Below are positions 6,928-31,427 of a stretch of 64,000 bases of DNA, piece by piece. The notes under the pieces were generated by a model. That model was given only the letters and a program-made list of their open reading frames with translations, did no database searches and was not told the origin of the DNA. Where the stretch lies: the IMG/VR virus record IMGVR_UViG_3300028920_001041; one strand, written 5' to 3'. Within the stretch, counting starts at the first letter, position 1, and each line of letters opens with the position of its first letter. Made by a program: the position numbers and the translations under genes. Source of the DNA: an uncultured virus (IMG/VR IMGVR_UViG_3300028920_001041) (lineage: Duplodnaviria > Heunggongvirae > Uroviricota > Caudoviricetes).

Positions 6928-6929
6928 AA

Positions 6930-10056: not shown

Positions 10057-10890
10057 TTAATGTAACTCATATCTTAACACCTCTATACAATTCTGACAAA
10101 TGGGGTCTATAGGTTGATTATTTATTAATTCCCCTTTAATTAATTTGTCAAAATTATCATCATTTAATTCAGTATGTGCTGTATATGAATGACTTTGTTT
10201 ACAAAATTTGATCCTTTTATTAACTAAATCAAAACCAACAAAGTGTAATTTTCTAAAGCATCGTTCTCTAAGTTGATTTAATTTCTTTTCATTGTAGTAA
10301 TGTAGTCCTCTAGAAAACAATTCTTCTTTATTGACGAAACTTGGAAATGTTTTGATTAAATAAACATAATCTTTTGGTTGCAAAGCATATTCAGTTTGAT
10401 CATCAGGAACCTTTGTGTAAAAATATTGAAACCACAATTTCATACCTAGTTTGTAATTCTTTTTTAGGAAACCTTTAAGTAATTTAACATTCTTTCTATG
10501 AATAACAATCAAGTGTGTTACTTTACGATTGATTATATCAATTTCTATTTCCTGATCTAATTCTGATACACAATGATATATTACTCTATCAATATCATCA
10601 TAATATTTTTCGAAATATCCTTTCTTAAAGAATTCTCCATTTGTTTCTACTACAACAGGATAGTTGTATGAGAAAATATGTTCTAATATATGTTCTGGGA
10701 TTAATCCAGTTTCACCACCAGATATATGCAAAGGTATATTGTTCTCCTTTGCCCATCTAGCAATCTTGAAATAATATTTAATTAAATAACTACGATCAAC
10801 ACTCTTTATATCCTGTATTCTAGGACGATCACAATATCCACAGGTCCAATTGCACCTTTCTCCTAATACTACACATATTAATTTCGGCAT
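10057..10890 (-). CDS. radical SAM protein (paralog of 3978..4679)
   Basis: CNWTCGYC, SGGE, ETNG; C-terminal CQNC. Confidence 0.9.
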   Translation of the reverse strand: MPKLICVVLGERCNWTCGYCDRPRIQDIKSVDRSYLIKYYFKIARWAKENNIPLHISGGETGLIPEHILEHIFSYNYPVVVETNGEFFKKGYFEKYYDDIDRVIYHCVSELDQEIEIDIINRKVTHLIVIHRKNVKLLKGFLKKNYKLGMKLWFQYFYTKVPDDQTEYALQPKDYVYLIKTFPSFVNKEELFSRGLHYYNEKKLNQLRERCFRKLHFVGFDLVNKRIKFCKQSHSYTAHTELNDDNFDKLIKGELINNQPIDPICQNCIEVLRYELH

Positions 10891-11873
10891 TTAATTGCCC
10901 TTTCAAGCTCATCTGAGATGATCCTTTTCTTCGGTACACACACTTCTGAATAACAGTTGTCTTCCTGACACATTATGGGATGATTAAAAATATAAAGATG
11001 TTCTCTAAAATTATCTTTAATGAGATTTAATATAGGTGGTCTATGATTTTTTCTCATTGTTAAACAGTAATGAACATCTCCATTAGAACACACTATTAGA
11101 TTCTTTCGTCCACATTGGCACCTGAAGTGTTTATAATTCGCTTTACCTTCACAATACAGTTTTATTTCGTTAAAAGAGACATTTTTTTCAACAATTTGTC
11201 CGTTATCATCATATTTTATTTGATATTTTTGGAGAACATCATTATGCTCTTGTTGAGAGATATACCATCGTAAATCTTCCATATCGAATTTCTGATCTGG
11301 ATGATAGATTATATCAATAGAACAATTAAGATTAGCTTGAACGTTCTCCATTTCTTTAAATTCTTGATACAGTCTTTTAATTTCTTCTTTGTATCTTGAA
11401 TCCCACATTACTTTTACTTGAACAAAATTAACATGTTTCGCTAGAAATAAAGCATTCTCTAAGAATCTTCCATTGTTAGAGAATTCGTAATGATACGACC
11501 CTAATATCTTTATATCTCTTCTTATTTCAATCATCGTTTTGTAAAAATCTAAAGGCATACCAAGATTTGTAAAGACTTGAAGAGGATATTTTGATTTTTT
11601 AAGTTGACTTAATATTTTAAAGAAATGTGGATCGATGGTTGGCTCTCCACCAAACAAAATAAGGTCAAGATCATAATTCTCATATAGATAATTATAAAAT
11701 TCTATTATTCTTGATTTATGTTCATAGGTATAAAATTGTTCGTGTCTATTCTCATATGTACAATAATGACACCTATAATTGCAGCGACTTGTTATGTCCC
11801 AATGGGAAAAGAATGAGTTCTTCTCCTCTATTAACATGGTGGAGCCTACTCCTAATATTTTTATCTGGTTCAT
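10878..11873 (-). CDS. radical SAM protein with C-terminal Cys cluster
   Basis: CNYRCHYC, FGGEP, CQCG...GDVHYC; likely start MNQIKILGVG. Confidence 0.9.
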   Translation of the reverse strand: MNQIKILGVGSTMLIEEKNSFFSHWDITSRCNYRCHYCTYENRHEQFYTYEHKSRIIEFYNYLYENYDLDLILFGGEPTIDPHFFKILSQLKKSKYPLQVFTNLGMPLDFYKTMIEIRRDIKILGSYHYEFSNNGRFLENALFLAKHVNFVQVKVMWDSRYKEEIKRLYQEFKEMENVQANLNCSIDIIYHPDQKFDMEDLRWYISQQEHNDVLQKYQIKYDDNGQIVEKNVSFNEIKLYCEGKANYKHFRCQCGRKNLIVCSNGDVHYCLTMRKNHRPPILNLIKDNFREHLYIFNHPIMCQEDNCYSEVCVPKKRIISDELERAIKCRN

Positions 11874-12819
11874 TATTCTTCCTTCTAAGAACCAATGTCT
11901 TTGGAAATTCTGTTTCACAACAAAACCCCATAAAATCACATATCATCCCATCTTCAAAATGATTTAGATAATCCTTAAAATTTTCTTTAACTAGATTAAG
12001 AATAGGCGTGATATGACTTTTACAGGGAAACACATCTGCATTAGAATTAACAAAAATGAGGTTCTTTCCGGCGGCACCACATTTATAGTAGTTGTTTGAT
12101 TCTAACATTGTTGTTCTCATTTCATTCCAAGATACATCTCGTTCTTTTTCTATACCATCCTCTAAATACTTTAAACGAAGAACTTCATAATCTTGTAATG
12201 GTAAAAACCAATCTAAATCTTCTGGTTTCCAATCTGCACCAGTGTCACCGATTTGATTTGGTAACACAAGATCGATAAAACATTCGTATCCTGTACGACT
12301 TTCAAATTTTTTAAAGAACTTATACTCTTCAATAGATTGTTCCTTTCGACGGGAATCTGCCATAATCTTCATACGAATCTTTTTGACATCCGAGCCAAGC
12401 AGATACCCTAATTTCTTAAGAAACATATCTTTATTTACTTTGTATATATGGTATGAGATTGATATTGTCATATCAGATCGTATAGACAATAACTTTTTAA
12501 AGAAATCAAGATCCTGACTAAGATTAGTGAATAATCTAATATAACTGTTTAATTTCGTCACTATTTTTAAGAAATCTGAATCGCAAGTTGGTTCACCACC
12601 ATACAACAATACTTTTTGTTCTCTAATTGTATCCATGTAATTAAAGAATTCTATTATTTTTTTCTTCGTCTCCCATGTTGCTAACTTTTCATTTCTGAAA
12701 ACATCACAATAATCACATTTATAATTACAATTACCAGTAACAAACCAATATGCATATAATATATTTGGGTTCTCAAACATTGTTTTCAACCCAACTTCTA
12801 AGACCTCTACTTTTTTCAT
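11773..12819 (-). CDS. radical SAM protein with C-terminal Cys cluster
   Basis: CNYKCDYC, YGGEP, CGAAG...DVFPC. Confidence 0.9.
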   Translation of the reverse strand: MKKVEVLEVGLKTMFENPNILYAYWFVTGNCNYKCDYCDVFRNEKLATWETKKKIIEFFNYMDTIREQKVLLYGGEPTCDSDFLKIVTKLNSYIRLFTNLSQDLDFFKKLLSIRSDMTISISYHIYKVNKDMFLKKLGYLLGSDVKKIRMKIMADSRRKEQSIEEYKFFKKFESRTGYECFIDLVLPNQIGDTGADWKPEDLDWFLPLQDYEVLRLKYLEDGIEKERDVSWNEMRTTMLESNNYYKCGAAGKNLIFVNSNADVFPCKSHITPILNLVKENFKDYLNHFEDGMICDFMGFCCETEFPKTLVLRRKNNEPDKNIRSRLHHVNRGEELILFPLGHNKSLQL

Positions 12820-13772
12820 TTAAGACGCTCTCTTATTTTATTAGGTAATCTTCTTCTTGGAACAACTACTTCACAACAAAATCCTTTTGCCCGGCATATA
12901 ATATCTTTATTGAACATATCTAAATAATCATTATAATCAGCATTAAACAAGTTAAAAATTGGTTTTCCTTCATTCTTCATAGTCTGACAATAAAATACAT
13001 CACCATTAGATTCTATAAACAATCCATTTCTGCCACAACTACAAGTATACGAGTAATGTTCAGGAAACCCACCAGATAATCTTCTAATTGAATTATAACC
13101 CATACGTTTCGTTGTTATTGTTCCATCATCGTTCTTAATTACGATCGCATGGGAATTATCATTTTGTATCCTATCAAAATATGTTAAATCATTATCATTC
13201 CAATCACCACCACAGTCATCATTATACACTAAATCTAGACTGCACTTAAAGTTAGTGTGATATGTTTCTAATTTTTTAAATTCATGATAAACATTCAATA
13301 TATCGTTCTTACACCTTGAGTCCCACATTACTTTTATTTTTAAAAATGGGACATAATCTAAAAGATACTTAACAATAATTAAAAATTTCTTTTTATCTGC
13401 TTTTAAATGGTGGTAAGAAGGAACAACCTTTAAATAGTTTTTTGTCTTCACTAATTCTTTATAAAAGCCTAATTCCATTGATAGATTAGTGAGAAATATT
13501 ATATTCGAATTGATACTATTAACTATTTCTATGATATCAGGATGTATTGAAGACTCTCCACCAAATAAAACTGTCTCCATTGTGTGATTATTAGATATGA
13601 AATTTATATATTTAACAATTTGTTGCCATTTATCTTTATTAACTAAATTTTCTGTTTTATATACACCACAATAGTCACATTGATAGTTACATAAATTAGT
13701 TACTGACCAATGTAGATAGAAAAGATCATTAATTTTTTTAAAGTCGTGATGCCCTACTTCTAAGATGTCCAT
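12816..13772 (-). CDS. radical SAM protein with C-terminal Cys cluster
   Basis: CNYQCDYC, FGGE, CSCG...GDVFYC; likely start MDILEVG. Confidence 0.9.
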   Translation of the reverse strand: MDILEVGHHDFKKINDLFYLHWSVTNLCNYQCDYCGVYKTENLVNKDKWQQIVKYINFISNNHTMETVLFGGESSIHPDIIEIVNSINSNIIFLTNLSMELGFYKELVKTKNYLKVVPSYHHLKADKKKFLIIVKYLLDYVPFLKIKVMWDSRCKNDILNVYHEFKKLETYHTNFKCSLDLVYNDDCGGDWNDNDLTYFDRIQNDNSHAIVIKNDDGTITTKRMGYNSIRRLSGGFPEHYSYTCSCGRNGLFIESNGDVFYCQTMKNEGKPIFNLFNADYNDYLDMFNKDIICRAKGFCCEVVVPRRRLPNKIRERLK

Positions 13773-14835
13773 CTGATATACCTTTAAAATATAGAATGTC
13801 TGTAACCCTATCTCCATAAACTGTCTTAAATTCTTCTGTTCCCCATTTAGAGTCATATGTGGCCCATATACAATCACAGATATATAGGTAACTGCATTTA
13901 AGACAACAAAATGGTTGAATAGTGATAGAACGTAAAGTGCTTTGTATTGCATTTGTTTCTAAATCCCATTTAGACCCATTTAACTCTAATGGAGGTGGAG
14001 ATTGCCCATGCCGTATCTTCTCGGACCAATGTATTATATGTTCACTCCATTCATAAGGATCAAACATCCTCTGTTTATACATGCAAAGATACTTCTCATA
14101 TCCTTCCATAACACAAAATGGAACATACCGAACATTTATTCTCATCTTCTTATCAAGAATGTCAATTGATTCTTTAACATACGGCATACTCTCTGTAAAT
14201 GTTACCATATTATCTTGAGACGCTGTATTCTCTAGTCTAAAAGGAAGAAAGTTAAAACATTCGGGATTAATTTGATTTGCTAATTCGGCAATTTTAGGAA
14301 TGTCTTTATAATTATCTTTAGCAACCACAGTGTTGATACGAATAAATACTCCTAGCTTCATTGCATGATCAATAGCTTTTCTTATTTTTCTATATGATCC
14401 TTTAACACCAGTCATACCATCATGTACTTCTTCACAACTGCCATGTAAAGAAAATAATACTTCATTAAGTCCACAATCAATACTTTCTTCAAAAAAATTA
14501 ATATCCGACAATTCATACCCATTTGTTATTACAGCTATTCGATCAGCACCAAGTTCATCTTTCATATATGATAAAAGGAGAAACCAATAAGGTAACATTG
14601 TTGGTTCTCCTCCACTTATGTCCCAATCTTTTATACCATATGAAAATCCAGCATGTAATTGATCAGATATTTCATCCTTCATATCGACATGTTTCAAATC
14701 TTTATAGAAACAAAATTTGCATTTAATATTACATAAATATCCCGTAAACAATCTTGATCTTCTTGTCAATAAATCCATATGTTGGTGTTGTTCAATTTGA
14801 TTTCTAAAGTCTATTTTAAACGACGTCGTCATCAA
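13738..14835 (-). CDS. radical SAM protein (SPASM-like C-terminus)
   Basis: CNIKCKFC, SGGEP, ITNG, VPFC, CLKCSYLYICDC. Confidence 0.9.
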   Translation of the reverse strand: MMTTSFKIDFRNQIEQHQHMDLLTRRSRLFTGYLCNIKCKFCFYKDLKHVDMKDEISDQLHAGFSYGIKDWDISGGEPTMLPYWFLLLSYMKDELGADRIAVITNGYELSDINFFEESIDCGLNEVLFSLHGSCEEVHDGMTGVKGSYRKIRKAIDHAMKLGVFIRINTVVAKDNYKDIPKIAELANQINPECFNFLPFRLENTASQDNMVTFTESMPYVKESIDILDKKMRINVRYVPFCVMEGYEKYLCMYKQRMFDPYEWSEHIIHWSEKIRHGQSPPPLELNGSKWDLETNAIQSTLRSITIQPFCCLKCSYLYICDCIWATYDSKWGTEEFKTVYGDRVTDILYFKGISDGHLRSRASRL

Positions 14836-16285
14836 ATGCTCCCTTTTCGGCGTACTGTTTATCGTTCTCTCCTATATTATTAGCAAACATTTTGTGGCAA
14901 TACGCAGATCTTAATCGATCTACTCTTTCTTTAGCAACTGATCTTGGTAACCCATCTATACTGAACTTCTTTGGTATATTAACTACAATATCACTAAGAT
15001 CAGGTAATGCATCAATATATTCATCTTCCCAACTTGTAAAAGTTATACCAAATAAATCAGGGGTTGTGTACACATTTGAATTAGGAAAGACTTTAAACAC
15101 AGTTGGACAAAGGTTAAAAAGAGTATCATATTTCTCTTTAAATTCTCCACATATTTTAAAACGAACAGCATCGTCTTCATCACTCTCGCCTGGTAATCCA
15201 ACAATTAATCCTACATTGCATGTTATATTTCTTTCAACAACTCGAGTAATTGCTTTCATAGAATTTTCAGTGTTTTGATTATGTGCTTTCTTCATAAGTG
15301 CATATAATCTGTCACTAAATCCTTCTACACCTAAAAATATGCTCCCTGCCCCTGACCTTGATAATCCATCCGCAAAGTCTTTAGTAACCATTCTAGGTAA
15401 ACCAAAGCTATGCCAGTGTTCTACACCAACTTTTTCTATCATATCACAAATTTTAAGACCTCTAGCTTCTGTAGGATTTATGATATCATCTTCCATTTCA
15501 ATACCGGTGAAATTAGTTCTCTTCTTTGTCCTCATTAAATATTCATACATGTTATCTAACTCATATCTAACATAAGGTCTACTGCTGGCACAAAACGCAC
15601 ATTTATTAGGACACCCTACTGATGTAACAAAAGGTATAGTATAACGAGATCGTATTACATCCGTTCTATTAAGTTCAGGCCAAGTCATATCTTTATTGAA
15701 TGTTCCTGTTACACTCCCATGAGTTAATCTCCCTTCAATAATGTCTAACATAGGTTGACAACCATCATCTTTAACAACTACATCAGCTATACCGCTCTTT
15801 AGAGTAAAGTCTCTAATATTGCCACTAAGATCCATATGGTATCCACCAAATACAATGGTTATATTTGGGTTTTTGTTTCTTAATTTTAATGCATAATAGC
15901 TAATATAAAAATAAGTGATATATGTTACAGTGAAACCAAAAATACTATTATTAGGAATCATTAATTGATCGACATCTTTATCAATATCTGCCAGGATGTT
16001 AAGCTGATATTCACTAAAATCATCCTCTATGCCATCTATAAAATTATCATTATCTGATCTATAGTTTTTAATCATTGTTATAAATCTAGGTAAATCTGCT
16101 ATCTCTGCAACATAGGAATTATATTCAATTTTGCTATATATGCTATACATAAAATAATAATAATCTTTGCATTCGGCATTATACCCATGATTCTTTAAAT
16201 ACTGCTGTATAATACCTGTATTTGATTTTCTTAATTCCGTTATAAGTCCATTATTAATCGAAATTAATTGTATTAATCTATCCAT
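14816..16285 (-). CDS. B12-binding-type radical SAM protein (class B methyltransferase-like)
   Basis: GFTVTY, IVFGGYH, SVGCPNKCAFC, IVGLPGES. Confidence 0.85.
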   Translation of the reverse strand: MDRLIQLISINNGLITELRKSNTGIIQQYLKNHGYNAECKDYYYFMYSIYSKIEYNSYVAEIADLPRFITMIKNYRSDNDNFIDGIEDDFSEYQLNILADIDKDVDQLMIPNNSIFGFTVTYITYFYISYYALKLRNKNPNITIVFGGYHMDLSGNIRDFTLKSGIADVVVKDDGCQPMLDIIEGRLTHGSVTGTFNKDMTWPELNRTDVIRSRYTIPFVTSVGCPNKCAFCASSRPYVRYELDNMYEYLMRTKKRTNFTGIEMEDDIINPTEARGLKICDMIEKVGVEHWHSFGLPRMVTKDFADGLSRSGAGSIFLGVEGFSDRLYALMKKAHNQNTENSMKAITRVVERNITCNVGLIVGLPGESDEDDAVRFKICGEFKEKYDTLFNLCPTVFKVFPNSNVYTTPDLFGITFTSWEDEYIDALPDLSDIVVNIPKKFSIDGLPRSVAKERVDRLRSAYCHKMFANNIGENDKQYAEKGAFDDDVV

Positions 16286-16299
16286 TAAATTACTACCTC

Positions 16300-17769
16300 C
16301 TAAACATCATCGTCAAATGCTCCCTTTTCGGCGTACTTCTTATCTGCATCCCACTTAGCCATACCAGTTGTTGGACAGGCAGCTCTAAGCTTTTCCATAC
16401 GCTCTCTAGCAACTTTCCTATCAATTCCTTCAATAGCAAACTTCTTTGGAACCTTTGCTAGAATAGGACTAAGTTCAGGGATAGCATCTATATATTTATT
16501 ATCCCAAGGTTCAAGAGTAACACCAAACACATCTGGTTCTTGATAAATTCGAGAGTTAGGAAAGAGTTTAAATGTAGTAGCTAAAAGATCAAATAAGTAT
16601 CCGTATTTCTTATAAAACCCTTCGCATATCTCGTAACGAATCTTATCGTCTTCATCTGTCTCACCAGGTAATCCTACAATAATACCAACACAAGCCATTA
16701 CTTCATGTGAACAAACACGATCAATAGCATCAATAGCATTATCTTTAGTCTGTCCCGATGCTTTATTCATAAGTTCATAAACATCATCACTAAACCCTTC
16801 GGCACCTAAGAATATACTAACAGCGTTTGATTTCTTTAATGCTTTAATAAGTTTATCTGTTAAATTTCTAGGAACACCAAAACAATGCCAATGCTCAACA
16901 CCAACTCTTTCTATCATGTCACAGATTCTAAGGCCTCTAGCTTCTGTTGCATTTATGTTGTCATCCGCCATTTCAATGCCAGTGAATCCGGTTGTTTTTC
17001 TCATCATTTTTAGATATTCATACATATCATCTAAATTATAAGTTGTATATGGTCTGCTGCTGGCACAAAACGCACATTGATTTGGACAACCTACCGAGGT
17101 AACAGATGGAATTATCTTTTTAGACATATGAACTTCAAGGCGGCTAAGTATAGGCCATGTAACATCTTTACTAAATACACCTGTCACTATCCCATGAGTT
17201 AATCTGCCTTCTATAACATCAAGCATGGGTTGGCAACCATCATCTTTAACAACTACATCAGCAATTCCGCTAGCTAAAGTAAAATCTCGATTGTTATCAC
17301 CAAACCCCATATGATACCCACCAAATACAATCTTTATATTCGGGTTTTTTCTTCTCAACATTAGCGCATAATAAGAAGTGTAGAAATGGGATATATAAGT
17401 ACAACTGAATCCGAAGACACTATTATCTGGAATAGTTAATGCTTCAACATCATCATTAATACGATTAATTATTATCATTTGATGTTCAGTGAATTCGTCC
17501 TCTATACCTTTCAAAAGAGATTTTTCATGATTCTTATAATTTTGGATCATAGGAATAAATTTAGGTACATCCGCTATCTCTGCAACATACGAATGATATT
17601 CAGTCCTATTATACCTACTATACATAATATAATAATAATCTTTGCATTCGGCATTATATCCATGATTTCTCAAAAACTGCCGTATAATGCTAGTCGTGGA
17701 CCTTCTTAATTCTGTTATAAGTCCATTGTTAATTGAAATTAACTGTATTAATCTCTCCATATTAGGCAC
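16300..17769 (-). CDS. B12-binding-type radical SAM protein (tandem paralog of 14816..16285)
   Basis: IVFGGYH, SVGCPNQCAFC, IVGLPGET; near-identical N- and C-termini to its neighbour. Confidence 0.85.
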   Translation of the reverse strand: MPNMERLIQLISINNGLITELRRSTTSIIRQFLRNHGYNAECKDYYYIMYSRYNRTEYHSYVAEIADVPKFIPMIQNYKNHEKSLLKGIEDEFTEHQMIIINRINDDVEALTIPDNSVFGFSCTYISHFYTSYYALMLRRKNPNIKIVFGGYHMGFGDNNRDFTLASGIADVVVKDDGCQPMLDVIEGRLTHGIVTGVFSKDVTWPILSRLEVHMSKKIIPSVTSVGCPNQCAFCASSRPYTTYNLDDMYEYLKMMRKTTGFTGIEMADDNINATEARGLRICDMIERVGVEHWHCFGVPRNLTDKLIKALKKSNAVSIFLGAEGFSDDVYELMNKASGQTKDNAIDAIDRVCSHEVMACVGIIVGLPGETDEDDKIRYEICEGFYKKYGYLFDLLATTFKLFPNSRIYQEPDVFGVTLEPWDNKYIDAIPELSPILAKVPKKFAIEGIDRKVARERMEKLRAACPTTGMAKWDADKKYAEKGAFDDDV

Positions 17770-17780
17770 AATCTCCTTCT

Positions 17781-18689
17781 CTACAAAATATCGAGTAATA
17801 AATCATTTTCAGACATAAATAACTCTTCTTTTACTTCTTCTGATTCTATATCTAACGGAATATGATTAATCTCACCATCTATCCCGAATAACCTTAAATA
17901 ATAGTATAGCCCATCTCGCATAAACATACCATCAGTATAGTAATTAACGATCTTGTTTTTATATAAATGCTCGAAGATAACCCGACCCATATTCTCTAGA
18001 TGTCGGCCGTCGGCAATCTTACTATTCCGTCTCTCTGTTCGCCTATAAGTAAACGTATCATGTAGCCAGGGCATAAATTCGAAACGTTTTATATTGAATT
18101 TCTGATAGTATGTATATTGTTTGCATGTAGTAGGTACGTGATTGCAAGGATTAACCAGAAATACATTATAATCAAATTTAAGAATATGACATAAATCAGA
18201 AAATATACCAAGTTTTGATTTAGTCAAATCTAAACTATCCATCACAATTAATCGCTTACAATTAATACTAATCGGTTTCCCTGCATAAATTTCATAAAGT
18301 AATCTAGCAGAACATATTATCGTATCTGCCTCAAATTCTTTATCCTCGGTTAAGCAGGAATACAATCCTAAATCTCCAAAACAACGATTATTTCTAAGAA
18401 ATGGGATTTCAGGAGTAATACCATATTTAGCAGTAGGGTTATCTATACTCAATGGTTCACAATCTGTTGTTTCTTTATTATCATATCTAAACAACTTTGT
18501 TTCTGCTAAAGGAATATTATAATATATATTATTATCCGGGTATTGTGGGTCAAGAAGATATAATTCTGGACATATTATATTAAATGTAATATCATTTCTA
18601 AACATTCTTAGATTTTGATATAAATCAATTAATGAAGTCATAACTCCATCAACGATACTAAGATAATAATGCAAAATCAGAATCTTCAT
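17781..18689 (-). CDS. putative glycosyltransferase-like protein
   Basis: MKILILHY...DGVMTSLIDL N-terminus; ENMGRVIFEHLYKNKIV GT-B-like motif. Confidence 0.5.
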   Translation of the reverse strand: MKILILHYYLSIVDGVMTSLIDLYQNLRMFRNDITFNIICPELYLLDPQYPDNNIYYNIPLAETKLFRYDNKETTDCEPLSIDNPTAKYGITPEIPFLRNNRCFGDLGLYSCLTEDKEFEADTIICSARLLYEIYAGKPISINCKRLIVMDSLDLTKSKLGIFSDLCHILKFDYNVFLVNPCNHVPTTCKQYTYYQKFNIKRFEFMPWLHDTFTYRRTERRNSKIADGRHLENMGRVIFEHLYKNKIVNYYTDGMFMRDGLYYYLRLFGIDGEINHIPLDIESEEVKEELFMSENDLLLDIL

Positions 18690-24085: not shown

Positions 24086-25025
24086 CAGTATCTATTATCC
24101 TTTCAAAGTAACGAATAGTGTTCTTTAGTCCCTCAATTAAATTAGTCGTAGGTGCCCAACCTATTGCCTTTTTAATTTTATCAACATCTGGGCACCTTCT
24201 ATTTGGATCATCAATTGGTCGATTTAAATAGGTAATAGAAGTGCTACTTTGTGTCAAGTCCAATACTACATTCGCCAATTGAAGTATTGAGATCTCTTCT
24301 GGATTACCTAAATTAAAAGGAGATAAAAAGTATCTATCGTAATTCACTAACCTAATTACCCCGGACACAAGATCATCAATATAACAAAACGATCGAGTTT
24401 GTGAACCATCACCATGAACAGTTATTCTTTTACCTTTTATTGATTGACATACAAAATTTGAAACGACACGACCATCGTCAACTTGCATTCTTGGACCATA
24501 GGTATTGAATATTCTACCAATTCTAACATGTGTATTATGATTGCGAATATAATCATAACATAATGCTTCAGCACTTCTTTTTCCTTCATTATAGCAAGAT
24601 CGAGGACCAAAACAATTTACATTTCCAAGGTAGTCTTCTGATTGAGGGTGTACTGCTGGATCCCCATACACTTCTGAAGTTGATGCATGAAACATTATTG
24701 CGTTATTTTTTTTCGCTAATTTAAGAACATTTAATGTACCTAATACATTAGTTCTAATAGTTGATATAGTATTCTCTTGACATTTAATTGGACTTGCAGG
24801 ACTTGCAAAATTATATATTTGATCTATATCTGCAATATGGAAAGGATGTTCAATATCCTCTTTTATAAATTTAAAGTTTGATAAACCCTCCAAATGCTGT
24901 ATATTATCCATAGACCCGGTACTTAGATTGTCTAAGCAAATAATGGTATTTTCTCTGTTTTCACATAATTTTTGACAAATATGTGATCCAATGAATCCTG
25001 CGCCTCCAGTCACTAAAATTCTCAT
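24051..25025 (-). CDS. UDP-glucuronate decarboxylase (UDP-xylose synthase-like SDR)
   Basis: VTGGAGFIGSH, ASTSEVYGDP, RSCYNEGKR, RIFNTYGPRM, DGRVVSNF. Confidence 0.92.
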   Translation of the reverse strand: MRILVTGGAGFIGSHICQKLCENRENTIICLDNLSTGSMDNIQHLEGLSNFKFIKEDIEHPFHIADIDQIYNFASPASPIKCQENTISTIRTNVLGTLNVLKLAKKNNAIMFHASTSEVYGDPAVHPQSEDYLGNVNCFGPRSCYNEGKRSAEALCYDYIRNHNTHVRIGRIFNTYGPRMQVDDGRVVSNFVCQSIKGKRITVHGDGSQTRSFCYIDDLVSGVIRLVNYDRYFLSPFNLGNPEEISILQLANVVLDLTQSSTSITYLNRPIDDPNRRCPDVDKIKKAIGWAPTTNLIEGLKNTIRYFERIIDTDESSSLLHGVG

Positions 25026-25033
25026 ATTTCCCC

Positions 25034-25867
25034 TCATATAAATAACTTTACAATTTCATCATCCTTGTTTAAAAATCTATCACTTAATCCTCTATCATTT
25101 AAATCATTAAATCTATAATAACTTCCGTCTCTAACATCATATGGGTTATAATAGAAAATTTTCTTGCCATAATATGCACATTCAAGAAAGAGACGAGGAT
25201 GAGGATCAAAATATTTATTCGCATGGTAATAAATAAACCTATCAAAAAACTCAAATAAATTCTTAAAATGATCAGTTTGTTTAAAATATATAGATCGATT
25301 ACGATCTAAATTTAGTTCTTCGATAAAATTATAATTATCATTCCCGGGTGAATTTATATAATATCCTTTTCTTGTGCCATCTATTTTCCTCATTCGATCA
25401 AATAATAATTTCATTCGATACGGCGTATCTTTATATACGAAAGGCATTTCTCCATAATATGTTACATTATATAAATCTTTACGAAACATATATTCAGGAT
25501 TATCAGTATGTAAATCACTTATAATAGTTATTTCAGTAATTACATCTATTTCCCCTGCTTTTAAAATACCACGCAATCTATTAATTGTCGTGTAATCTAA
25601 TATTAAAACCTTTTCGAATACATAATGTACAATGTTGAATCTTCTTATATTTTCAATATTATCTTTCCAATTCAAGTCGTCCAAGTTATATCGTTCTTCT
25701 ATAATATTAAAGAGATATTGTTTAAACTCGACATTGAAATCTATTAGAATCATCCTCATTTCTGGATTATGTTCTAGTATAGCGAAATAATATTCAAACG
25801 CATCTATTATTGCTCCACTAACCGTTTTATGAGGATATGCATTACAAAGAAGTACAGCATTCATCAT
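25034..25867 (-). CDS. putative glycosyltransferase-like protein
   Basis: SGAIIDAFEYY; DPHPRLFLECAYYGKKI; DDEIV. Confidence 0.55.
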   Translation of the reverse strand: MMNAVLLCNAYPHKTVSGAIIDAFEYYFAILEHNPEMRMILIDFNVEFKQYLFNIIEERYNLDDLNWKDNIENIRRFNIVHYVFEKVLILDYTTINRLRGILKAGEIDVITEITIISDLHTDNPEYMFRKDLYNVTYYGEMPFVYKDTPYRMKLLFDRMRKIDGTRKGYYINSPGNDNYNFIEELNLDRNRSIYFKQTDHFKNLFEFFDRFIYYHANKYFDPHPRLFLECAYYGKKIFYYNPYDVRDGSYYRFNDLNDRGLSDRFLNKDDEIVKLFI

Positions 25868-26685
25868 TAAATACCTTTATCTGGTGTCCACCCGATGAGA
25901 GAGATATGAGAATCTATATCGTCTTCTATTGTTTCTGGTACCATGTCTTCTAAATATAAACGATCTGGGTTATTAAAGAATAAATTAAATTCTTTTCCTG
26001 CGTTCGACAGATAATCTAATTCTTCCCTCTTAACCACTTTACTATCTTCAGAATATTTACGCATATTTAAAAGATCCATAATTGTGAAATACTTATTATA
26101 TTGGGGAGTAGAATGAATAAATTTATTATGATCGAAATGTAATCCAGTTAAATTCATAACATCTTTAATTACTGATTCTTGATTTGCAATCAACGATTCA
26201 AATTTTATACTCATTACATTCGTATATTGACTAACTGGTAAAAATCTTTTAAAATGAGGAAAATAAGCAGAAGCATATTTCTTAACACCACCAACTCTAT
26301 GCTGTGTGACAACCCAACACGCTCTAGGATCTCTACCAATAAAGAATCCATAATCACAATATTTAACAAATTCTTCAGATCTAATAAAAACAAAGACATA
26401 CGGTTTATCTGTTAGATTATCATATATCTTTAATAATAGTTCTTTATTTAAATTATCTCTTACTAGATCAATAGCAAATGAATCACATCCATACGTTTTA
26501 ATTATGTGAAACATATTCTCGCCTGAAAAATCTGTTAATTTATCTAATCTAATATCGTCACCGATATGAGTGGGACTTCTATTCGAATTCATGAAGAATT
26601 GATTCTTAAAATTCTTATTAAATATATCTAAAAGGAGACTCTTTCCTCCATCAGTCATCATCATCAAACCAATTATAGTCTTCAT
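25867..26685 (-). CDS. sulfotransferase-like protein
   Basis: N-terminal GGKSLL loop, GRDPR, IKFESLI...VIKDVMNLTGL pattern. Confidence 0.5.
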   Translation of the reverse strand: MKTIIGLMMMTDGGKSLLLDIFNKNFKNQFFMNSNRSPTHIGDDIRLDKLTDFSGENMFHIIKTYGCDSFAIDLVRDNLNKELLLKIYDNLTDKPYVFVFIRSEEFVKYCDYGFFIGRDPRACWVVTQHRVGGVKKYASAYFPHFKRFLPVSQYTNVMSIKFESLIANQESVIKDVMNLTGLHFDHNKFIHSTPQYNKYFTIMDLLNMRKYSEDSKVVKREELDYLSNAGKEFNLFFNNPDRLYLEDMVPETIEDDIDSHISLIGWTPDKGI

Positions 26686-27443
26686 TAAATCTCCCCCCTT
26701 AATTTCCGCACTCTATTCTCTAAAAGACCAATCTGTTCCGATGAATCAATTCCAAACCCAATATGTTTTATCTTATACATCATAACAGGAATACTAGACT
26801 CAATAAACCTATTTTGCTCAAGACTTTCAATATCTGAGTTTTTACTCCAAATTGACGGACCATTTACTGCAAAGAGATCTCTAGGGAATATAAAAATACC
26901 TACATGCTTATTATACTCTTCTAACTTTAGTCCTTCTCCACTTCTTTTAATCGGCACAACAGCTCTAGAATTATATATCATTCTATTATTATATATTACT
27001 ATTTTACAAGAGAATAGACTAATCAAATCATCTACACTATAAAAACTTGAGTAAAACGATGATATTACATGTCTTGCAAAGTCAAATTTCGATACAACCT
27101 TGTTAACTTCATCAGGATCAATACAAGGTTCATCACTAGGGATAGATATATAATAATCAAAATCTTTATTCGATAAATAATATAAATATGACCGTTCTGA
27201 TCCACAGGATGCTTTACCTACATTGATAGCATCTACACCTATAAAATTCGTTTCTACATAATCAATAATATCTTCACTATCCGTGGCTACTACAATTTTA
27301 TTTAAGAAATCGAGTTTTAAGGCATTACTAATAACATGATGCAATATGGGTTTACCTAAAAATTCGGCAAACAATTTATTAGGGAACCGCTTAGATTTAA
27401 GTCTCGCTGGGATTACCCCTACAGCGCTGTCATTTATCTGCAT
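26685..27443 (-). CDS. kdsB: CMP-Kdo synthetase-like cytidylyltransferase
   Basis: IPARLKSKRFPNK, VVATDS, GSER, DEP, HVGIF, ESLEQNR. Confidence 0.85.
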   Translation of the reverse strand: MQINDSAVGVIPARLKSKRFPNKLFAEFLGKPILHHVISNALKLDFLNKIVVATDSEDIIDYVETNFIGVDAINVGKASCGSERSYLYYLSNKDFDYYISIPSDEPCIDPDEVNKVVSKFDFARHVISSFYSSFYSVDDLISLFSCKIVIYNNRMIYNSRAVVPIKRSGEGLKLEEYNKHVGIFIFPRDLFAVNGPSIWSKNSDIESLEQNRFIESSIPVMMYKIKHIGFGIDSSEQIGLLENRVRKLRGEI

Positions 27444-28269
27444 ATCTAGAGTTTATCTCCTTCATCGCCCTAAGAAATATAGAGTTATGTACAGTTCTAA
27501 ACATATGTTCAGTTCGATCGTCTGTTTTATATCGAAAACAATGAACTCCAATAACTCTAACTTCTTTCATACCTTCTCGCATATAATAAACACCATCGCG
27601 AACATAACAGTCTCTAACGACACAATTCCATTTATATGCATTACCTTTATCATTATTAAAATCAAAGAAATAATTAAGATAAAACTGTTCTGCACACCAA
27701 TTAGCAATAATAAACATATTAGCAAGACATTGTTTAAATCCTAATAGTTTCCTTTTTATTTGAATCACATGACCACCTAAAAGTCCGGCGTTAACAGTTC
27801 CTCCAAATGTTTTAATTAATTTAGCATTTGTTTTTAATTCTTTTTCTTTAATTCTTGGTTCCTTTGGCCCTCTATATATCTTTTTATTTAGATAATCTAA
27901 AGGTATCTTCTCACATGCCATTAAACAGCCAGTGGTTAATTCAATCATTGGCCACAACCCACTAACACTGCCCTGAAACCAGATATCTACATCCATAATA
28001 ACAACATTATAATTTTCATACTTATCTAATAACGGAATTAAATCAATGTATCTCGCTACTCCTGTTACTTCCTCTACTCGCAACATACAATTTACTATCT
28101 TCGCTCCTAACAACTTACAGCGAGCAATTATATCATCATTAATTCCATAGTTTAATATTAGAATTTCTCCATCGTACACTCCTAATGTTCTTAAACTAAT
28201 TATCCAATCTAATAATAATTCTTCTGTCGCTTTACTTGCTGCGCCACATATTAAAGTTTTATTTTCCAT
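27430..28269 (-). CDS. GT-A-fold glycosyltransferase-like protein
   Basis: MDVDIWFQ DxD motif, NAGLLGG, EQFYLN. Confidence 0.65.
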   Translation of the reverse strand: MENKTLICGAASKATEELLLDWIISLRTLGVYDGEILILNYGINDDIIARCKLLGAKIVNCMLRVEEVTGVARYIDLIPLLDKYENYNVVIMDVDIWFQGSVSGLWPMIELTTGCLMACEKIPLDYLNKKIYRGPKEPRIKEKELKTNAKLIKTFGGTVNAGLLGGHVIQIKRKLLGFKQCLANMFIIANWCAEQFYLNYFFDFNNDKGNAYKWNCVVRDCYVRDGVYYMREGMKEVRVIGVHCFRYKTDDRTEHMFRTVHNSIFLRAMKEINSRYADK

Positions 28270-28852
28270 TGATATATTCTTTATAATCAGATATTGCTCG
28301 ATGGTTAGTAAAACATTTCTTTAAGACAGCAGGTGGTACAGTTGCATAATCTGCTCCCTCTAACATTGCGAATATGACATCTGCTTTTTCACGAAAACTT
28401 GCAGCGATAATCCTTGTTTTATATTTGTAGTTCGTTCTAATCCTATTGCATTCATAAAGAAGACCTCTATTTTCATTTTTAGCAATCAGAACTATGCAAT
28501 AATCACAACCTAAGTCACAAGATTGATGAAATTGTAGTACATCATATGTTGTCGTTCCACATACTCTTATACTAGGAGTATCGACCAATTTTCTAATAAG
28601 ATCAAATTTTTGTTTGATTAATGGAACTTTATAAACCATTCTTCCTTTAGCTGCAGGTAAATCTTCCCATATTTGGTTTTCATTATCAATCTGGAGGAAT
28701 ATGTTATCAAACATTCCTGCCATTTTTGAGACAAAATCAGGAGTCTTAACATTCGCTTTTTTAAGAAGGTGAGGATTTGTTGTTACCCCCTCAACATAAT
28801 CTTTCCATTCGACAATTTGTTCTGTATCAGCAGTATCAATAAAGTACTTCAT
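28259..28852 (-). CDS. transaldolase / fructose-6-phosphate aldolase family
   Basis: FIDTA, GVTTNP, VYKVP (Schiff-base Lys), IAASFR, TVPP. Confidence 0.9.
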   Translation of the reverse strand: MKYFIDTADTEQIVEWKDYVEGVTTNPHLLKKANVKTPDFVSKMAGMFDNIFLQIDNENQIWEDLPAAKGRMVYKVPLIKQKFDLIRKLVDTPSIRVCGTTTYDVLQFHQSCDLGCDYCIVLIAKNENRGLLYECNRIRTNYKYKTRIIAASFREKADVIFAMLEGADYATVPPAVLKKCFTNHRAISDYKEYINGK

Positions 28853-28853
28853 A

Positions 28854-29768
28854 TTACACTTTCCTATAGTTTGTTGAAGTTCTATTTAATCTATCGTCAC
28901 CAGAAAATTTACTATTATAAATTACGGCATCTTGTTGGTCTCTTCGTTGGTCACAATTTTTACATATATAATTTGATTCTGCTAATGTTCCATCTATGTG
29001 CTGCTTTTTTAAATCAATAAAAGCATCAGAATTAAATATCTCTTCTAATGTTTGAGTCATAAAATCACCCAATAATAGTATTCCATTATAATCGAAACAA
29101 CACATGTTAATTGTTCCATCTACTTGAATCTGTAATGGACTATTTATTGGACGACCACAGGAATTTTTAACAATGGGTCCTTTCCTATAATCTAAAATGT
29201 CTACCCAATTATGAGGACGCCAAATCTCAAGAAGATCAACTCTATCTGAATACATTTCAATAATATTATCTATTTCATCCTTATTAATATCTATAACATC
29301 TATTGTGATAACTAGACGAGTGCATTCTTTGTTGTTAATAATATATTCAATATTCTTTAATACTTTTTTATGCTGAACAGGAGAAGCTCCCGTTATCTTA
29401 CAATAATTATCGGTATCTATCGAATGTAAGCTAATTCTAATATCTTCAACAGCTGTGTCGAATAATATATCAATTTGATTTTCATCTAATGTGCTTCCAT
29501 TAGTTAATATGTGAACGAGAAACCCTCGTTCTCTAGAATATTTAATCTTTTCAAAAATAGTAGGATCTAAAAATGCCTCACCAAATCCAGAAATAGTTGT
29601 TTCGTGTATATATGGTGCTTCAATCTTTAGTTTATCAATAATAAATCGATATATTTCCAACGACATGATCTCTTTTTTTCGAGTGAAATGTGTTGGATGT
29701 GTACAGAATTTGCAACGATAGTTACACTTTGTACAAGTCTCTATCCTTGCTTCGTTAGTTATTAGCAT
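28854..29768 (-). CDS. radical SAM protein with SPASM/twitch domain
   Basis: CNYRCKFC, GFGEA, CGRP...DGTINMCCFD...CKNC. Confidence 0.9.
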   Translation of the reverse strand: MLITNEARIETCTKCNYRCKFCTHPTHFTRKKEIMSLEIYRFIIDKLKIEAPYIHETTISGFGEAFLDPTIFEKIKYSRERGFLVHILTNGSTLDENQIDILFDTAVEDIRISLHSIDTDNYCKITGASPVQHKKVLKNIEYIINNKECTRLVITIDVIDINKDEIDNIIEMYSDRVDLLEIWRPHNWVDILDYRKGPIVKNSCGRPINSPLQIQVDGTINMCCFDYNGILLLGDFMTQTLEEIFNSDAFIDLKKQHIDGTLAESNYICKNCDQRRDQQDAVIYNSKFSGDDRLNRTSTNYRKV

Positions 29769-30514
29769 TATTTCATAACTCCACAAGTTCTTAATATACT
29801 TATTAATTCAGTAATTGGTAATTGTGTATCAGCATCACATAATGCATTATCAGGATCTGTGTGACATTCTATGAACAACCCATCAGACCCACAAGCAATA
29901 GAAGATTTTGCTAAATCATAAGCATATGTATAATTGTTCCAATATTTATTGGGATGAGTGATATCAGTCACAACTTTAAACTTATAAGGGGTTTTCCCCT
30001 TCATTACTCTGATGAATCTAGGATCCATAATTAAGTAATCGAATCCAAAACTGGTTCCTCTATCTCCTATTATTAATTCAGCGTCTTTATTTAATTCAAA
30101 TACTTTAGTAACTATCTGCCCTATCTTAAAAGGATTAAGATGCTGTGGCTTTTTAATATGAATCGGAAGATCTCTTTTTACTGCCGCTTCAATTATAGAT
30201 GTTTGCATTGCTAAGAATGCAGGAATTTGAATCAAATCAACTCTATATGCATAATGATTAATTTGATCAACACTATGAAAATCTGTTGTTATCTTAATAT
30301 TGAATGATGTGCTGATATCTTCTAATGCCGCTAATCCATCTTCAAATCCTGGTCCATAATAATTTTCTAATTTAGTTCTATTATCCTTAATACAAGATGC
30401 TTTAAAATAAAAATCTATGTCTTTAATGTTTTTAATAACATCATTAATTTTCTTAGCTGTTATGAACAGCTTCTCAGGATCTTCTATTACACATGGACCA
30501 CAAATTAAAATCAT
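29768..30514 (-). CDS. kdsA: Kdo-8-phosphate synthase-like enzyme
   Basis: ICGPCVIE, FKAS..KDNRT, QIPAFL, IKKPQ, RGTSFG, DITH, FIECH..PDNALCD. Confidence 0.88.
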   Translation of the reverse strand: MILICGPCVIEDPEKLFITAKKINDVIKNIKDIDFYFKASCIKDNRTKLENYYGPGFEDGLAALEDISTSFNIKITTDFHSVDQINHYAYRVDLIQIPAFLAMQTSIIEAAVKRDLPIHIKKPQHLNPFKIGQIVTKVFELNKDAELIIGDRGTSFGFDYLIMDPRFIRVMKGKTPYKFKVVTDITHPNKYWNNYTYAYDLAKSSIACGSDGLFIECHTDPDNALCDADTQLPITELISILRTCGVMK

Positions 30515-31410
30515 ATTACTTCTCCAACAACCCAATCAATAAAAGTGCTGTATTTTGATCTATCTAAAATATACTCAAAATTATTATCGAACACATTCTT
30601 ATAAAAATTTTTAAATAATGACGAATTAAAAGGAATATTGTCATTATGAATATATGCCCCCGGTATAAATCTATCATGAACCTTTACAAAATCTTTAATA
30701 TCATCTATCCCATCACAATGCAGCCTTCCTTCTAATACAGGGGATATTATCTCTTTATTATTCTGAATTGCTTCTATTAAAGAATACGGCAAAGGATCGA
30801 TATAGTTTCTAGATTGTGGATAAACGTAATGAGTTATATTTGAGAAAAATACTTGTTGATCAAAAGTATGATGATGATTTAAAACATATTTAAACCTTTT
30901 ACTAAAATCATGTCTAGTATTTTGCCCCATCGTGTATACGTCAACATAAGAATATAAATCATTTAACATTCCTAAAAAATAATCAAACGAATCCCTTGTT
31001 ATATAGTTTCTTATATAAAATCCCAAACAAGGTCTAGTGACCTCTGATTGTTTCACTATAAAATCTGTAATCATAGGAATGAAATTCTTAATACTGTCAC
31101 ATTCATGAGTATAATAAAAACCATTATTACATGATTTATTTCCGAAGTAGTTATATTCATTTCGAACATATATTAAATAATCAATATCAATTAAAGAAAC
31201 AATATTAACAGGGAACGAATAATTACTCGGAACCTGAGTAACAAATATAAGCTTTTTGTATTTCTCATTTAACTCTCTTAAATTAACTACATCTTTTGAT
31301 TCTAGATGATCTAGATATTCCGAGTGTTCATTAGCCATTCTTTCTGAAACTGTAAATGCTCCACGTTTAAGATTTCCGTAGGCTACAGATATCAATAAGT
31401 ATTTCTTCAT
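30511..31410 (-). CDS. putative glycosyltransferase-like protein
   Basis: KRGAFTV N-terminal loop; DPLPYSLIEAIQNNKEI GT-B-like motif. Confidence 0.5.
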   Translation of the reverse strand: MKKYLLISVAYGNLKRGAFTVSERMANEHSEYLDHLESKDVVNLRELNEKYKKLIFVTQVPSNYSFPVNIVSLIDIDYLIYVRNEYNYFGNKSCNNGFYYTHECDSIKNFIPMITDFIVKQSEVTRPCLGFYIRNYITRDSFDYFLGMLNDLYSYVDVYTMGQNTRHDFSKRFKYVLNHHHTFDQQVFFSNITHYVYPQSRNYIDPLPYSLIEAIQNNKEIISPVLEGRLHCDGIDDIKDFVKVHDRFIPGAYIHNDNIPFNSSLFKNFYKNVFDNNFEYILDRSKYSTFIDWVVGEVI

Positions 31411-31427
31411 AATTATTAACAATAACG

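Follow-up and report, generated by a model that had tools for sequence, protein, structure and literature searches.

What does a phage do with some 21 kb of sugar-building and radical S-adenosylmethionine (rSAM) genes that lie directly behind its tail-fibre genes? The question arises from IMGVR_UViG_3300028920_001041, an uncultured virus (Caudoviricetes) in IMG/VR, of which we analysed a stretch of 64,000 nucleotides, hereafter the window. Our best reading of the gene island at positions 10057-31422, based on sequence comparison, is a cytoplasmic pathway for building and tailoring sugars; we identified its enzymes by homology, and their steps and acceptor are proposed below. Tentatively, and at somewhat short of an even chance, we regard the island as the variable arm for tailoring within a fibre-linked supercluster of modification genes, with the fibre proteins encoded just upstream as its most likely acceptor, judging from gene linkage.

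The island comprises 23 co-oriented, mostly abutting or overlapping minus-strand open reading frames (ORFs), has a GC content of ~0.29-0.33 and lies in a minus-strand run that extends over 389-49471. Its end had been placed at 31410, an ATG five codons within the longest ORF, which reaches to 31422. Genes are named below by their lower coordinate, and the island encodes, from its first gene:

30511..31422, minus strand: glycosyltransferase (GT)-B-like protein, the island's first gene (ESM Atlas lead; hhalign to the 19605 family)
29768..30535, minus strand: protein like the metal-dependent type of synthase for the 8-phosphate of 3-deoxy-D-manno-octulosonate (Kdo), KdsA-like (PF00793, 6.4e-41)
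28854..29786, minus strand: rSAM with a C-terminal SPASM/twitch-type cluster domain (PF04055, 2.2e-17; PF13186, 1.2e-9)
28259..28852, minus strand: TalC/FSA-type class I aldolase, 197 aa (PF00923, 4.2e-16)
27430..28269, minus strand: possible GT-A (GT8-like) protein, a lead only (PF01501, E 0.011; D-x-D motif 'DVD')
26685..27443, minus strand: cytidylyltransferase like CMP-Kdo synthetase, KdsB-like (PF02348, 1.6e-24, above the cut-off)
25867..26685, minus strand: sulfotransferase-fold protein (PF00685, 2.2e-3, under the cut-off)
25034..25867, minus strand: GT-B-like 'FEYY' paralogue (BLASTP to 18686 and 19605, ~1e-9 to 1e-10; phrog_14526, 5.5e-16)
24051..25037, minus strand: short-chain dehydrogenase/reductase (SDR) like UDP-glucuronate decarboxylase, that is, UDP-xylose synthase (UXS) (PF16363, 1.1e-50; PF01370, 9.1e-47)
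22988..24085, minus strand: amidinotransferase of the SxtG/StrB1/AGAT family (PDB matches; phrog_25854, 1.8e-48)
22032..22991, minus strand: rSAM family C, paralogue 1 (PF04055, 4.3e-10; twitch rSAM model NF033640, 4.1e-14, under the cut-off)
21071..22051, minus strand: rSAM family C, paralogue 2 (PF04055, 5.5e-10; CX3CX2C at residue 22)
20512..21078, minus strand: weak match to polysaccharide deacetylases of carbohydrate esterase family 4 (CE4) (PF01522, 2.7e-4, under the cut-off; phrog_26430, 6.6e-11)
19605..20525, minus strand: GT-B-like protein of the 'FEYY' family (ESM Atlas lead)
18686..19615, minus strand: GT-B-like 'FEYY' paralogue (BLASTP to 19605, 1e-10)
17781..18689, minus strand: distant relative of the 'FEYY' family (hhalign to A4, probability 90%, E 1.7e-6, N-terminal 52 columns)
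16300..17769, minus strand: class-B (B12-type) rSAM, candidate C- or P-methyltransferase, paralogue 1 (PF04055, 2.8e-15)
14816..16285, minus strand: class-B-like rSAM, paralogue 2 (PF04055, 1.1e-13; 63% identical to 16300-17769 over 488 aa, BLASTP)
13738..14835, minus strand: HxsC-like/BlsE-like rSAM (PF04055, 1.3e-17; HxsC, 1.8e-20, under the cut-off)
12816..13952, minus strand: rSAM family A, paralogue 3 (PF04055, 2.5e-8; ~34% identity to 10878 and 11773)
11773..12819, minus strand: rSAM family A, paralogue 2 (PF04055, 2.6e-8; BLASTP)
10878..11939, minus strand: rSAM family A, paralogue 1, with the motif CNY.C.YC (PF04055, 5.5e-9)
10057..10890, minus strand: small rSAM with a QueE/viperin-like N-terminus, the island's last gene (PF04055, 6.8e-6, 26.8 bits against 29.5)

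Much of a preliminary description of this DNA, made from the letters alone, is borne out by this inventory: the co-oriented, mostly overlapping run, the KdsA-like, KdsB-like and transaldolase genes, the UDP-glucuronate decarboxylase, the amidinotransferase and the ten rSAMs, all ten of which match PF04055 (nine above the Pfam gathering score) and contain CX3CX2C. Its proposal that nucleotide sugars are built and decorated here is also supported by the enzyme identities. Three of its assignments held in part. The CE4 deacetylase has a PHROG match but falls under the Pfam cut-off, the sulfotransferase is favoured by its predicted structure although its Pfam match is weak, and the six or so GT-like proteins correspond to six candidates identified by leads, none of which passes a curated family threshold.

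For comparison we gathered related loci, numbered with the prefix L, in three ways. A degenerate DNA pattern for two units of the Cys-repeat described below retrieved 39 loci on 36 IMG/VR contigs (motif-anchored), the GT-B-like family retrieved 60 loci (GT-anchored), and a profile of rSAM 36994, from the fibre side of the window, retrieved 76 loci (rSAM-anchored).

The genes for the KdsA-like protein, rSAM 28854, the aldolase, the KdsB-like protein and the sulfotransferase-fold protein recur in L006 in the same order, with identities of 52%, 55%, 43%, 46% and 38%, respectively. In L006 they lie between a Cys-repeat gene and the homologue of the hinge protein 31471, whereas in the window they follow 31471 and a GT-like gene; the slots differ, and therefore the cassette moves as a unit. 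This comparison of gene order and sequence shows a portable five-gene cassette, new here, which was found complete only in the window and L006 among the motif-anchored and GT-anchored loci (the 76 rSAM-anchored loci were not searched). Between the rSAM and aldolase genes of the L006 cassette, L006:2667-3413 looks like a second sulfotransferase-like paralogue, with a P-loop-like segment and 'RDPR' recognized by eye.

Among PDB sequences, 40 Kdo-8-phosphate synthases (KDO8PS) matched the KdsA-like protein at E<=1e-10, the best being that of Aquifex (3.8e-44, residues 8-249). The Cys, His, Glu and Asp columns of the Aquifex enzyme are retained ('GPCVIE', 'ITHP', 'ECHTDPDNALCD'), and we take them to be the metal ligands of the metal-dependent class. 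Scores stayed under the NCBIfam cut-offs, with 219.4 bits (4.5e-65) against 242 for the Kdo8P synthase model NF003543 and 214.8 bits against 314 for TIGR01362. Moreover, the protein and its L006 homologue read 'FLAMQ' where KDO8P synthases have 'FL.RQ' (Aquifex 'FLCRQT', window 'FLAMQT'), placing Met at an Arg that presumably contacts the phosphate of arabinose-5-phosphate. The KdsB-like protein likewise reached 140.5 bits (4.8e-41) against a cut-off of 193 for the best NCBIfam KdsB model, NF003952. The aldolase aligns with PDB transaldolase 1vpx (1.1e-14), including 'DTA', 'GVTTNP' and the Schiff-base Lys of 'K[IV]P', and matches TIGR00875 at 5.4e-17, under the cut-off. Among solved proteins, rSAM 28854, whose 55% identical homologue occupies the matching position in L006, is closest to BtrN (1.7e-7, via the C-terminal domain).

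The sulfotransferase-fold protein has just seven relatives in a search of 5.8 billion proteins, and an AlphaFold2 (AF2) model built on them (pLDDT 89.3, pTM 0.83) gave 19 Foldseek matches at E<=1e-3, with probability 1.00 but TM scores of 0.4-0.5. The top matches were the sulfotransferase domain of CurM (1.2e-5), tyrosylprotein sulfotransferases and NDST. Its 'GGKS' and 'RDPR' motifs are invariant in the alignment, and we assume that they form the loops that bind the sulfate donor 3'-phosphoadenosine-5'-phosphosulfate.

Two further enzymes are matched along most or all of their length. UXS-like 24051 aligns over residues 4-317 with human UXS1 at 1.7e-103, and other epimerases come next as a family, at 1e-40. 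The amidinotransferase matches seven PDB sequences (7.7e-53 to 8.3e-46), at full length SxtG (7.7e-53), StrB1 (1.8e-49) and AGAT (1.4e-47), and has homologues in L015, L016, L024, L034 and L029. Homologues of the CE4-like protein occur in L017 and L025.

By BLASTP, the ten island rSAMs form a set of three (family A), two sets of two (B12-type-like, and family C, 37% identical between 22032-22991 and 21071-22051), the singletons 13738 and 28854, and the small 10057. A B12-binding match was seen in 16300-17769 only (PF02310, 4.3e-4, under the cut-off); this protein matches the PhpK family at 1.9e-17, with 63 bits against a cut-off of 600, and no PDB sequence. The nearest solved relative of 13738 is the cytosylglucuronate decarboxylase BlsE (3.8e-9), so that both 13738 and 28854 have nearest solved relatives, BlsE and BtrN, that act on sugar-like substrates. 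Homologues of 13738 occur in 24/39 motif-anchored and 46/60 GT-anchored loci, and family A is present in 28/39 and 42/60, respectively. In L039, a 522-aa protein (L039:4846-6414) fuses a GT2 domain (residues 5-151) to a family-A-type rSAM (237-339, CNYKCTYC), the two being separate adjacent genes in sister loci; this fusion ties the chemistry of family A to glycosyl transfer. The last gene, 10057, has its CX3CX2C at residue 13 and is a paralogue of 3978-4679 (BLASTP 3e-10), which, with 34283-35434, 35449-36456 and 36994-38112, makes four further rSAMs beyond the island as first described.

Several of these enzymes would also suit a small-molecule pathway, whose product would be a diffusible aminoglycoside- or nucleoside-like glycoside instead of a decorated polymer. 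The StrB1/SxtG-type amidinotransferase, the UXS, the GT-like proteins and the B12-type rSAM methylase-like proteins fit such a product, as do the solved rSAM relatives from butirosin (BtrN) and blasticidin S (BlsE) synthesis, and the accessible text of PMC12801897 labels the amidinotransferase and rSAM of cyanophage S-SCSM2R 'antibiotic synthesis genes'. However, the similarity to BtrN and BlsE is weak (E 1e-7 to 1e-9), exporter, resistance and regulator genes are lacking within the island, aminotransferase and cyclitol synthase had no Pfam match in the window, and the arm remains linked to fibre genes in many phages. We therefore consider a small molecule an improbable product.

The six GT candidates (30511, 27430, 25034, 19605, 18686 and 17781) are leads only, and no curated GT family in Pfam or NCBIfam matched 30511, 25034, 19605, 18686 or 17781. 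Protein 30511, with no Pfam match, falls in virus-only clusters of the ESM Atlas, in which the nearest named family is Glycos_transf_1 (a lead only), and aligns with the 19605 family over 47 columns (hhalign probability 47%, E 2e-4); its homologues, 39-49% identical, occur in five loci, and its family has members in L017, L025, L006 and L027. Protein 19605 also falls in virus-only ESM Atlas clusters, with structural TM scores of 0.62-0.70 against GT4/GT28-type transferases (again a lead). Homologues of 19605, 18686 and 25034 are found in 28/39, 22/39 and 16/39 motif-anchored loci, respectively. No PDB sequence matched 27430, and neither Pfam nor PHROG matched 17781.

GT-B folds are also employed in DNA glycosylation, and the island could in principle place sugars on bases of the phage genome: in the available part of bioRxiv 10.1101/2023.12.21.572611, phage DNA glycosyltransferases can put Kdo-like and other sugars on 5-hydroxymethylcytosine. 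Cytosine methyltransferase, TET/JBP-type oxygenase and dCMP hydroxymethylase nevertheless gave no matches within the 64-kb window, and the island sits in the structural module, away from replication genes. DNA hypermodification is, in our judgement, very improbable.

Kdo is a sugar of the lipopolysaccharide (LPS) core, which favours yet another reading, host-envelope remodelling: CMP-Kdo-type and UDP-xylose donors would feed the LPS core, O-chain or capsule of the host, for example to block superinfection. Published interpretations point the same way, in that the accessible portion of PMC7029224 reads the fibre-linked GT/LPS genes of pelagimyophages as host-surface modification, and that of PMC12801897 reads kdsA/kdsB of S-SCSM2R as cell-wall modification genes. 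Against this, a Kyte-Doolittle scan found membrane segments in 0/23 island proteins, and flippase, polymerase, ligase and lipid-carrier/polyprenyl-phosphate transferase families had no match among the window proteins (Pfam, NCBIfam). Furthermore, in the ESM Atlas the GT-like families occur in viruses only, LPS pathways contain nothing that corresponds to the ten rSAMs, and the arm keeps its position directly behind the fibre genes. Taken together, envelope remodelling appears doubtful to us.

The genes that directly precede the island argue for a fibre-linked function, and they had been taken simply as fibres, their nature as Cys-repeat proteins with three SPASM rSAM maturases of their own having been overlooked. 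This fibre module, in which the three rSAMs flank fibre-like proteins with C-T-C-x-C-N-Y repeat arrays, contains:

31471..32076, minus strand: conserved 200-aa hinge protein between the fibre genes and the island (phrog_25260, 2.8e-16)
32079..32591, minus strand: remainder of a Peptidase_S74 domain, then C-T-C-x-C-N-Y repeats, 18 Cys (PF13884, 1.4e-5)
32592..33353, minus strand: Cys-repeat fibre-like protein, 36 Cys
33375..34259, minus strand: Cys-repeat fibre-like protein, 45 Cys, 50% identical to the preceding one (both aligned with nine relatives)
34283..35434, 35449..36456 and 36994..38112, minus strand: three SPASM-type rSAMs (PF04055; PapB family, 2.5e-39, under the cut-off)
36460..36984, minus strand: 174-aa Cys-containing ORF within the SPASM trio

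Each Cys-repeat protein has N-terminal C-x-x-H motifs, a central 'H.NELR.AI..E..RR' domain and a C-terminal C-T-C-x-C-N-Y(-x) array; 47 unique relatives contain 341 C-T-C-x-C-N-Y units, spaced by 7 or 8 residues. Searching by words for homologues of the central domain of 32592-33353 gave eight matches, none of them named. The arrays mostly finish in 'SD.R[LV]K..I.Y[LM]' and a stop, which we take as the start of the tail-spike Peptidase_S74 intramolecular-chaperone domain, an assignment to which the Pfam match of the following ORF also contributes. In the window this domain is split, 32592-33353 ending '...SDENLKLEVEYL' followed by TAA, and the next codon opening the in-frame ORF 32079-32591 with the rest. 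The split is also seen in L026, and the 12-residue start of S74 is a plain C-terminus in 16/18 cases. Programmed read-through of the TAA at 32592 was considered and dropped, since an in-frame S74 remainder follows just 2/18 S74-start endings. The N-terminal C-x-x-H-S motifs were likewise not kept as a His-Xaa-Ser (HxsA) repeat, because their order is a different one and the loci nearest to the Cys proteins of the window lack the HxsC-like rSAM.

The profile of rSAM 36994, built from 22 homologues, contains an invariant CX3CX2C and seven more Cys, and it matched PDB 5wgg (2.4e-40; core and SPASM, from residue 101 onward) and anSME (2.3e-21). The three CteB/anSME-like SPASM rSAMs probably cross-link the Cys-repeat proteins via thioethers, which would give stapled fibre tips. 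A related arrangement has been described in Methanococcus voltae, where, in the part of PMC13692751 available, the SPASM rSAM CrpC installs ranthionine (thioether) cross-links on the neighbouring Cys-rich CrpA. The likeness of CrpC/CrpA and of CteB/SCIFF, in their accessible descriptions, concerns the fibre-side trio, not the island, and lies in the Cys-rich substrate encoded next door. The phage enzymes differ from CteB (5wgg) in lacking its N-terminal part, being aligned from residue 101, and their substrates, unlike CrpA and SCIFF, are large fibre-like proteins with C-x-C-x-C-N-Y units of 7 or 8 residues. Papers that treat radical SAM together with phage tail fibres and cysteine-rich or thioether terms gave no description of such a fibre-side module, subscription journals lying outside the coverage.

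Several minor observations concern this module. The AF2 model of the hinge protein (pLDDT 90) had no PDB fold match at E<=0.001, and a complex prediction of 31471-32076 with 32592-33353 was unsupported. At the head of the fibre block, 48191-49471 (426 aa) ends in two C-x-C-x-C-N-Y units that resemble the Cys-repeat proteins (BLASTP); tblastn of this ORF and of 33375-34259 against cultured phages gave no matches. Distant relatives of rSAM 36994 (20-30%) in L085, L089, L114, L078, L083 and others adjoin other hyper-cysteine proteins with repeats of different kinds (such as CTGTC and C-x-x-C-Q-x-C) and up to 107 Cys in 568 aa; several of them share an '..E..RR[SG]' domain.

How constant is the linkage between this module and an arm such as the island? 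In the motif-found contigs, a homologue of rSAM 36994 occurs in 33/36, two of the three exceptions being cut by a contig end, and the hinge protein has homologues in 32/36 (35/39 loci). The order kept is a gene with a fibre C-terminal domain, an rSAM, a small ORF, two rSAMs, one to four Cys-repeat genes, the 31471 homologue and a co-oriented variable arm. Across 22 representative loci, rSAMs make up 79/253 arm ORFs of at least 100 aa, with at least one rSAM in 21/22; GT2 proteins occur in 10, SDR/RmlD-type proteins in 4 and DegT aminotransferases in 3, and the arms further carry 2-oxoglutarate oxygenases, a carbamoyltransferase, transketolase halves and others. Thirty-six motif loci contain 227 CX3CX2C ORFs in 0.66 Mb, as compared with 2 in 1.08 Mb of 74 control loci with S74 fibres. 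A Cys-repeat ORF or one with more than 9% Cys occurs in 48/76 rSAM-anchored loci, and an ORF with more than 9% Cys in 4/74 control loci. Among the GT-anchored loci, at least three CX3CX2C ORFs are found in 55/60, a homologue of the trio in 45 and a fibre sign in 42.

With peptide-modifying enzymes next door, the island might act mainly on protein, most of its rSAMs cross-linking, methylating or epimerising the fibre polypeptide and glycosylation being minor. The trio clearly belongs with rSAMs that modify peptides (5wgg, 2.4e-40), family-A and HxsC-like rSAMs accompany Cys-repeat genes even where sugar-nucleotide genes are not visible, many of the weak NCBIfam matches are maturases of peptides that are made by ribosomes and modified after translation (RiPPs), and B12-rSAMs methylate peptides in some systems. 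Family A is, however, fused to GT2 in L039, two phages have rSAM 28854 locked within the Kds cassette, the solved proteins closest to 28854 and 13738 work on sugars, and some arms lack Cys-repeat genes. An island devoted mainly to protein modification is thus, to our mind, rather improbable.

We favour the sugar-building and sugar-tailoring pathway. In favour of the fibre proteins as its acceptor are the conservation of the linkage, the solubility of the enzymes and the restriction of the GT families to viruses. In this pathway the aldolase would supply an aldose phosphate, which the KdsA-like enzyme would condense with phosphoenolpyruvate; a host phosphatase would strip the phosphate from the product, and the KdsB-like enzyme would yield a CMP-activated Kdo-type acid. 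The UXS would convert UDP-glucuronate from the host to UDP-xylose. The GT-like proteins would then build a short glycan in the cytoplasm, which the rSAMs, sulfotransferase, amidinotransferase and deacetylase would decorate, and the acceptor, as gene linkage suggests, would be the Cys-repeat proteins just upstream. The earlier proposal of a fibre target accordingly gains indirect support from the rSAM/GT arms behind fibre genes of many unrelated phage contigs, the 0/23 membrane segments and the missing flippase, whereas the choice of acceptor still follows from linkage only.

Several points weigh against this interpretation. That linkage could stem from late timing common to both sets of genes or from a hot spot of recombination, in the way the accessible text of PMC7029224 describes the hypervariable 'host recognition cluster' (HRC), and for such genes that text favours modification of the host O-chain. 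Many of the test loci are closely related to one another, so the counts above overstate independent events. In L009, a 23%-complete fragment, a Cys-repeat locus occurs without any rSAM, and in 15/60 GT-anchored loci the arm lacks the SPASM trio; arm and Cys-repeat module are thus separable. The GT assignments are leads without a curated match. The KdsA-like and KdsB-like proteins score under the NCBIfam equivalog cut-offs, the former with Met for Arg, and across the 68 window ORFs Pfam gave no SIS/CBS isomerase or HAD phosphatase match for KdsD or KdsC. The window also lacks a UDP-glucose dehydrogenase. Because of the sub-threshold Kds-like proteins, 'FLAMQ' and the lack of KdsC and KdsD in the window, the product may not be plain Kdo, a caution of the preliminary description that stands.

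A more specific version, unlikely in this full form, would have a CMP-activated, non-standard Kdo-type acid, for which the aldolase replaces KdsD and an rSAM edits the sugar, placed together with xylose and a guanidino group on thioether-stapled fibre tips; the sulfotransferase would sulfate the acid or the neighbouring Tyr of C-N-Y, and up to nine further rSAMs would tailor the glycan. If true, a ulosonic-acid glycoprotein would be known from a phage virion for the first time, and so would a protein glycan that radical SAM chemistry has tailored. If the glycan is on the fibres, host recognition by such phages would hinge on chemistry unseen in the protein sequence; this would affect the prediction of hosts from genomes and bring new enzyme reactions, namely the editing of sugars by rSAMs and a way to Kdo-type acids that does without KdsD.

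Islands of this class had already been published, which the preliminary description overlooked, and its analogy with the fibrils of giant viruses is not the best one available, the virion glycosylation of mycobacteriophages and the HRC of pelagimyophages being closer. In the available text of Zaragoza-Solas et al. 2020 (PMC7029224), the HRC of pelagimyophages and cyanomyophages matches the window in gene content, but, unlike it, is described without a Kdo cassette, Cys-repeat fibre proteins or a SPASM trio. T4-like baseplate genes were seen in one related locus only, L009.

Among cultured phages, homologues of the window rSAMs occur only in CP220 and CPt10 (36994 at 37%, 13738 at 35%). According to the accessible part of Timms et al. 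2010 (PMC2853527), they carry 11-12 rSAMs per genome, a putative amidinotransferase, a sugar epimerase and deacetylases, and a metabolic benefit at low oxygen was suggested for the rSAM genes. CP220 shares with the window a GT-B-like 'FEYY' homologue (26% identical to 19605) directly adjoining an rSAM. Unlike the window, however, these phages have scattered genes instead of one 21-kb run, no Kds genes and no Cys-repeat protein beside the 36994 homologue.

The cultured, T4-like cyanophage S-SCSM2R has adjacent kdsA and kdsB genes, its kdsA being 31% identical to the KdsA-like protein of the window. In the accessible text of PMC12801897 it also has an amidinotransferase, an rSAM maturase and 13 glycosyltransferases, with functions from annotation only, and, unlike in our cassette, no aldolase, rSAM or sulfotransferase is reported between kdsA and kdsB. 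Mycobacteriophages have GTs, encoded next to structural genes, that act on the virion proteins of the phage itself (Freeman et al. 2023, as cited in the available part of PMC12619734); there the targets are the capsid and tail-tube C-termini, and the system as described has no rSAMs, ulosonic-acid pathway or sequence relation to the window. What is new here is the portable Kds cassette and the number of rSAMs, similar islands being known in pelagimyophages, CP220 and S-SCSM2R. Fibre-linked GT and rSAM islands are widespread in large aquatic phages, and the window is an unusually complete case, joining the five-gene Kdo-like module, the UXS, the amidinotransferase and ten rSAMs to a fibre-side module in which Cys-repeat proteins are very probably cross-linked.

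The tail-fibre PHROG matches in ORFs upstream of the island, the relatives of window genes that turn up solely in viral contigs, and the rSAM homologues in Campylobacter phage CP220 support a phage origin, in line with the viral locus first described, and we take the window as DNA of a giant uncultured phage. The protein-cluster record containing the sulfotransferase-like protein gives 306,383 bases as its longest contig. The other arm of the window contains an HNH gene and one that resembles the gene for T4 endonuclease V.

In two marine-sediment metagenome runs, contigs cover the part examined, 20000-39000, and no RNA run was listed among those carrying this DNA. One of the two may be where the DNA came from; in the other run, the pieces listed show no differences across the island, and one piece spans the 30511/31471 junction. 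Contigs of both runs also contain a 'joint' 23119->32297 that skips 9177 bases, with nine foreign letters between its sides; as its short side has 21 matching letters only, we treated it as probably noise or related sequence. The closest relatives of the two halves of the window, L006 (at a contig start) and L019 (at a contig end), are both broken inside Cys-repeat genes, and the Cys-repeat stretch is split into short unitigs in the window's own runs too; assemblies seem to be interrupted by Cys-repeat arrays.

By megablast, the island had no match among 50,697 phage records, and single-protein searches for related loci with the KdsA-like protein and the B12-rSAM gave no relatives. A tRNA scan found none, and scans of 9000-28900 for promoters (138 against 129.4 ± 9.6 expected) and terminators (7 against 4.7 ± 2.0 expected) stayed at chance level and give no information on operon structure. 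In 45050-46843, a promiscuous 150-residue domain alone was matched, by 178 records from many hosts.

On the same strand, the island is followed by a DnaJ-domain protein (9346-10050), a PAS histidine kinase whose N-terminal part has three hydrophobic segments (7539-9353) and two response-regulator receiver proteins (6930-7526 and 6349-6927); 6349-10050 is a phage-encoded two-component system. On the plus strand, 54088-54552 (154 aa) weakly matches the C-terminal domain of ribosomal protein L7/L12 (PF00542, 4.5e-6).

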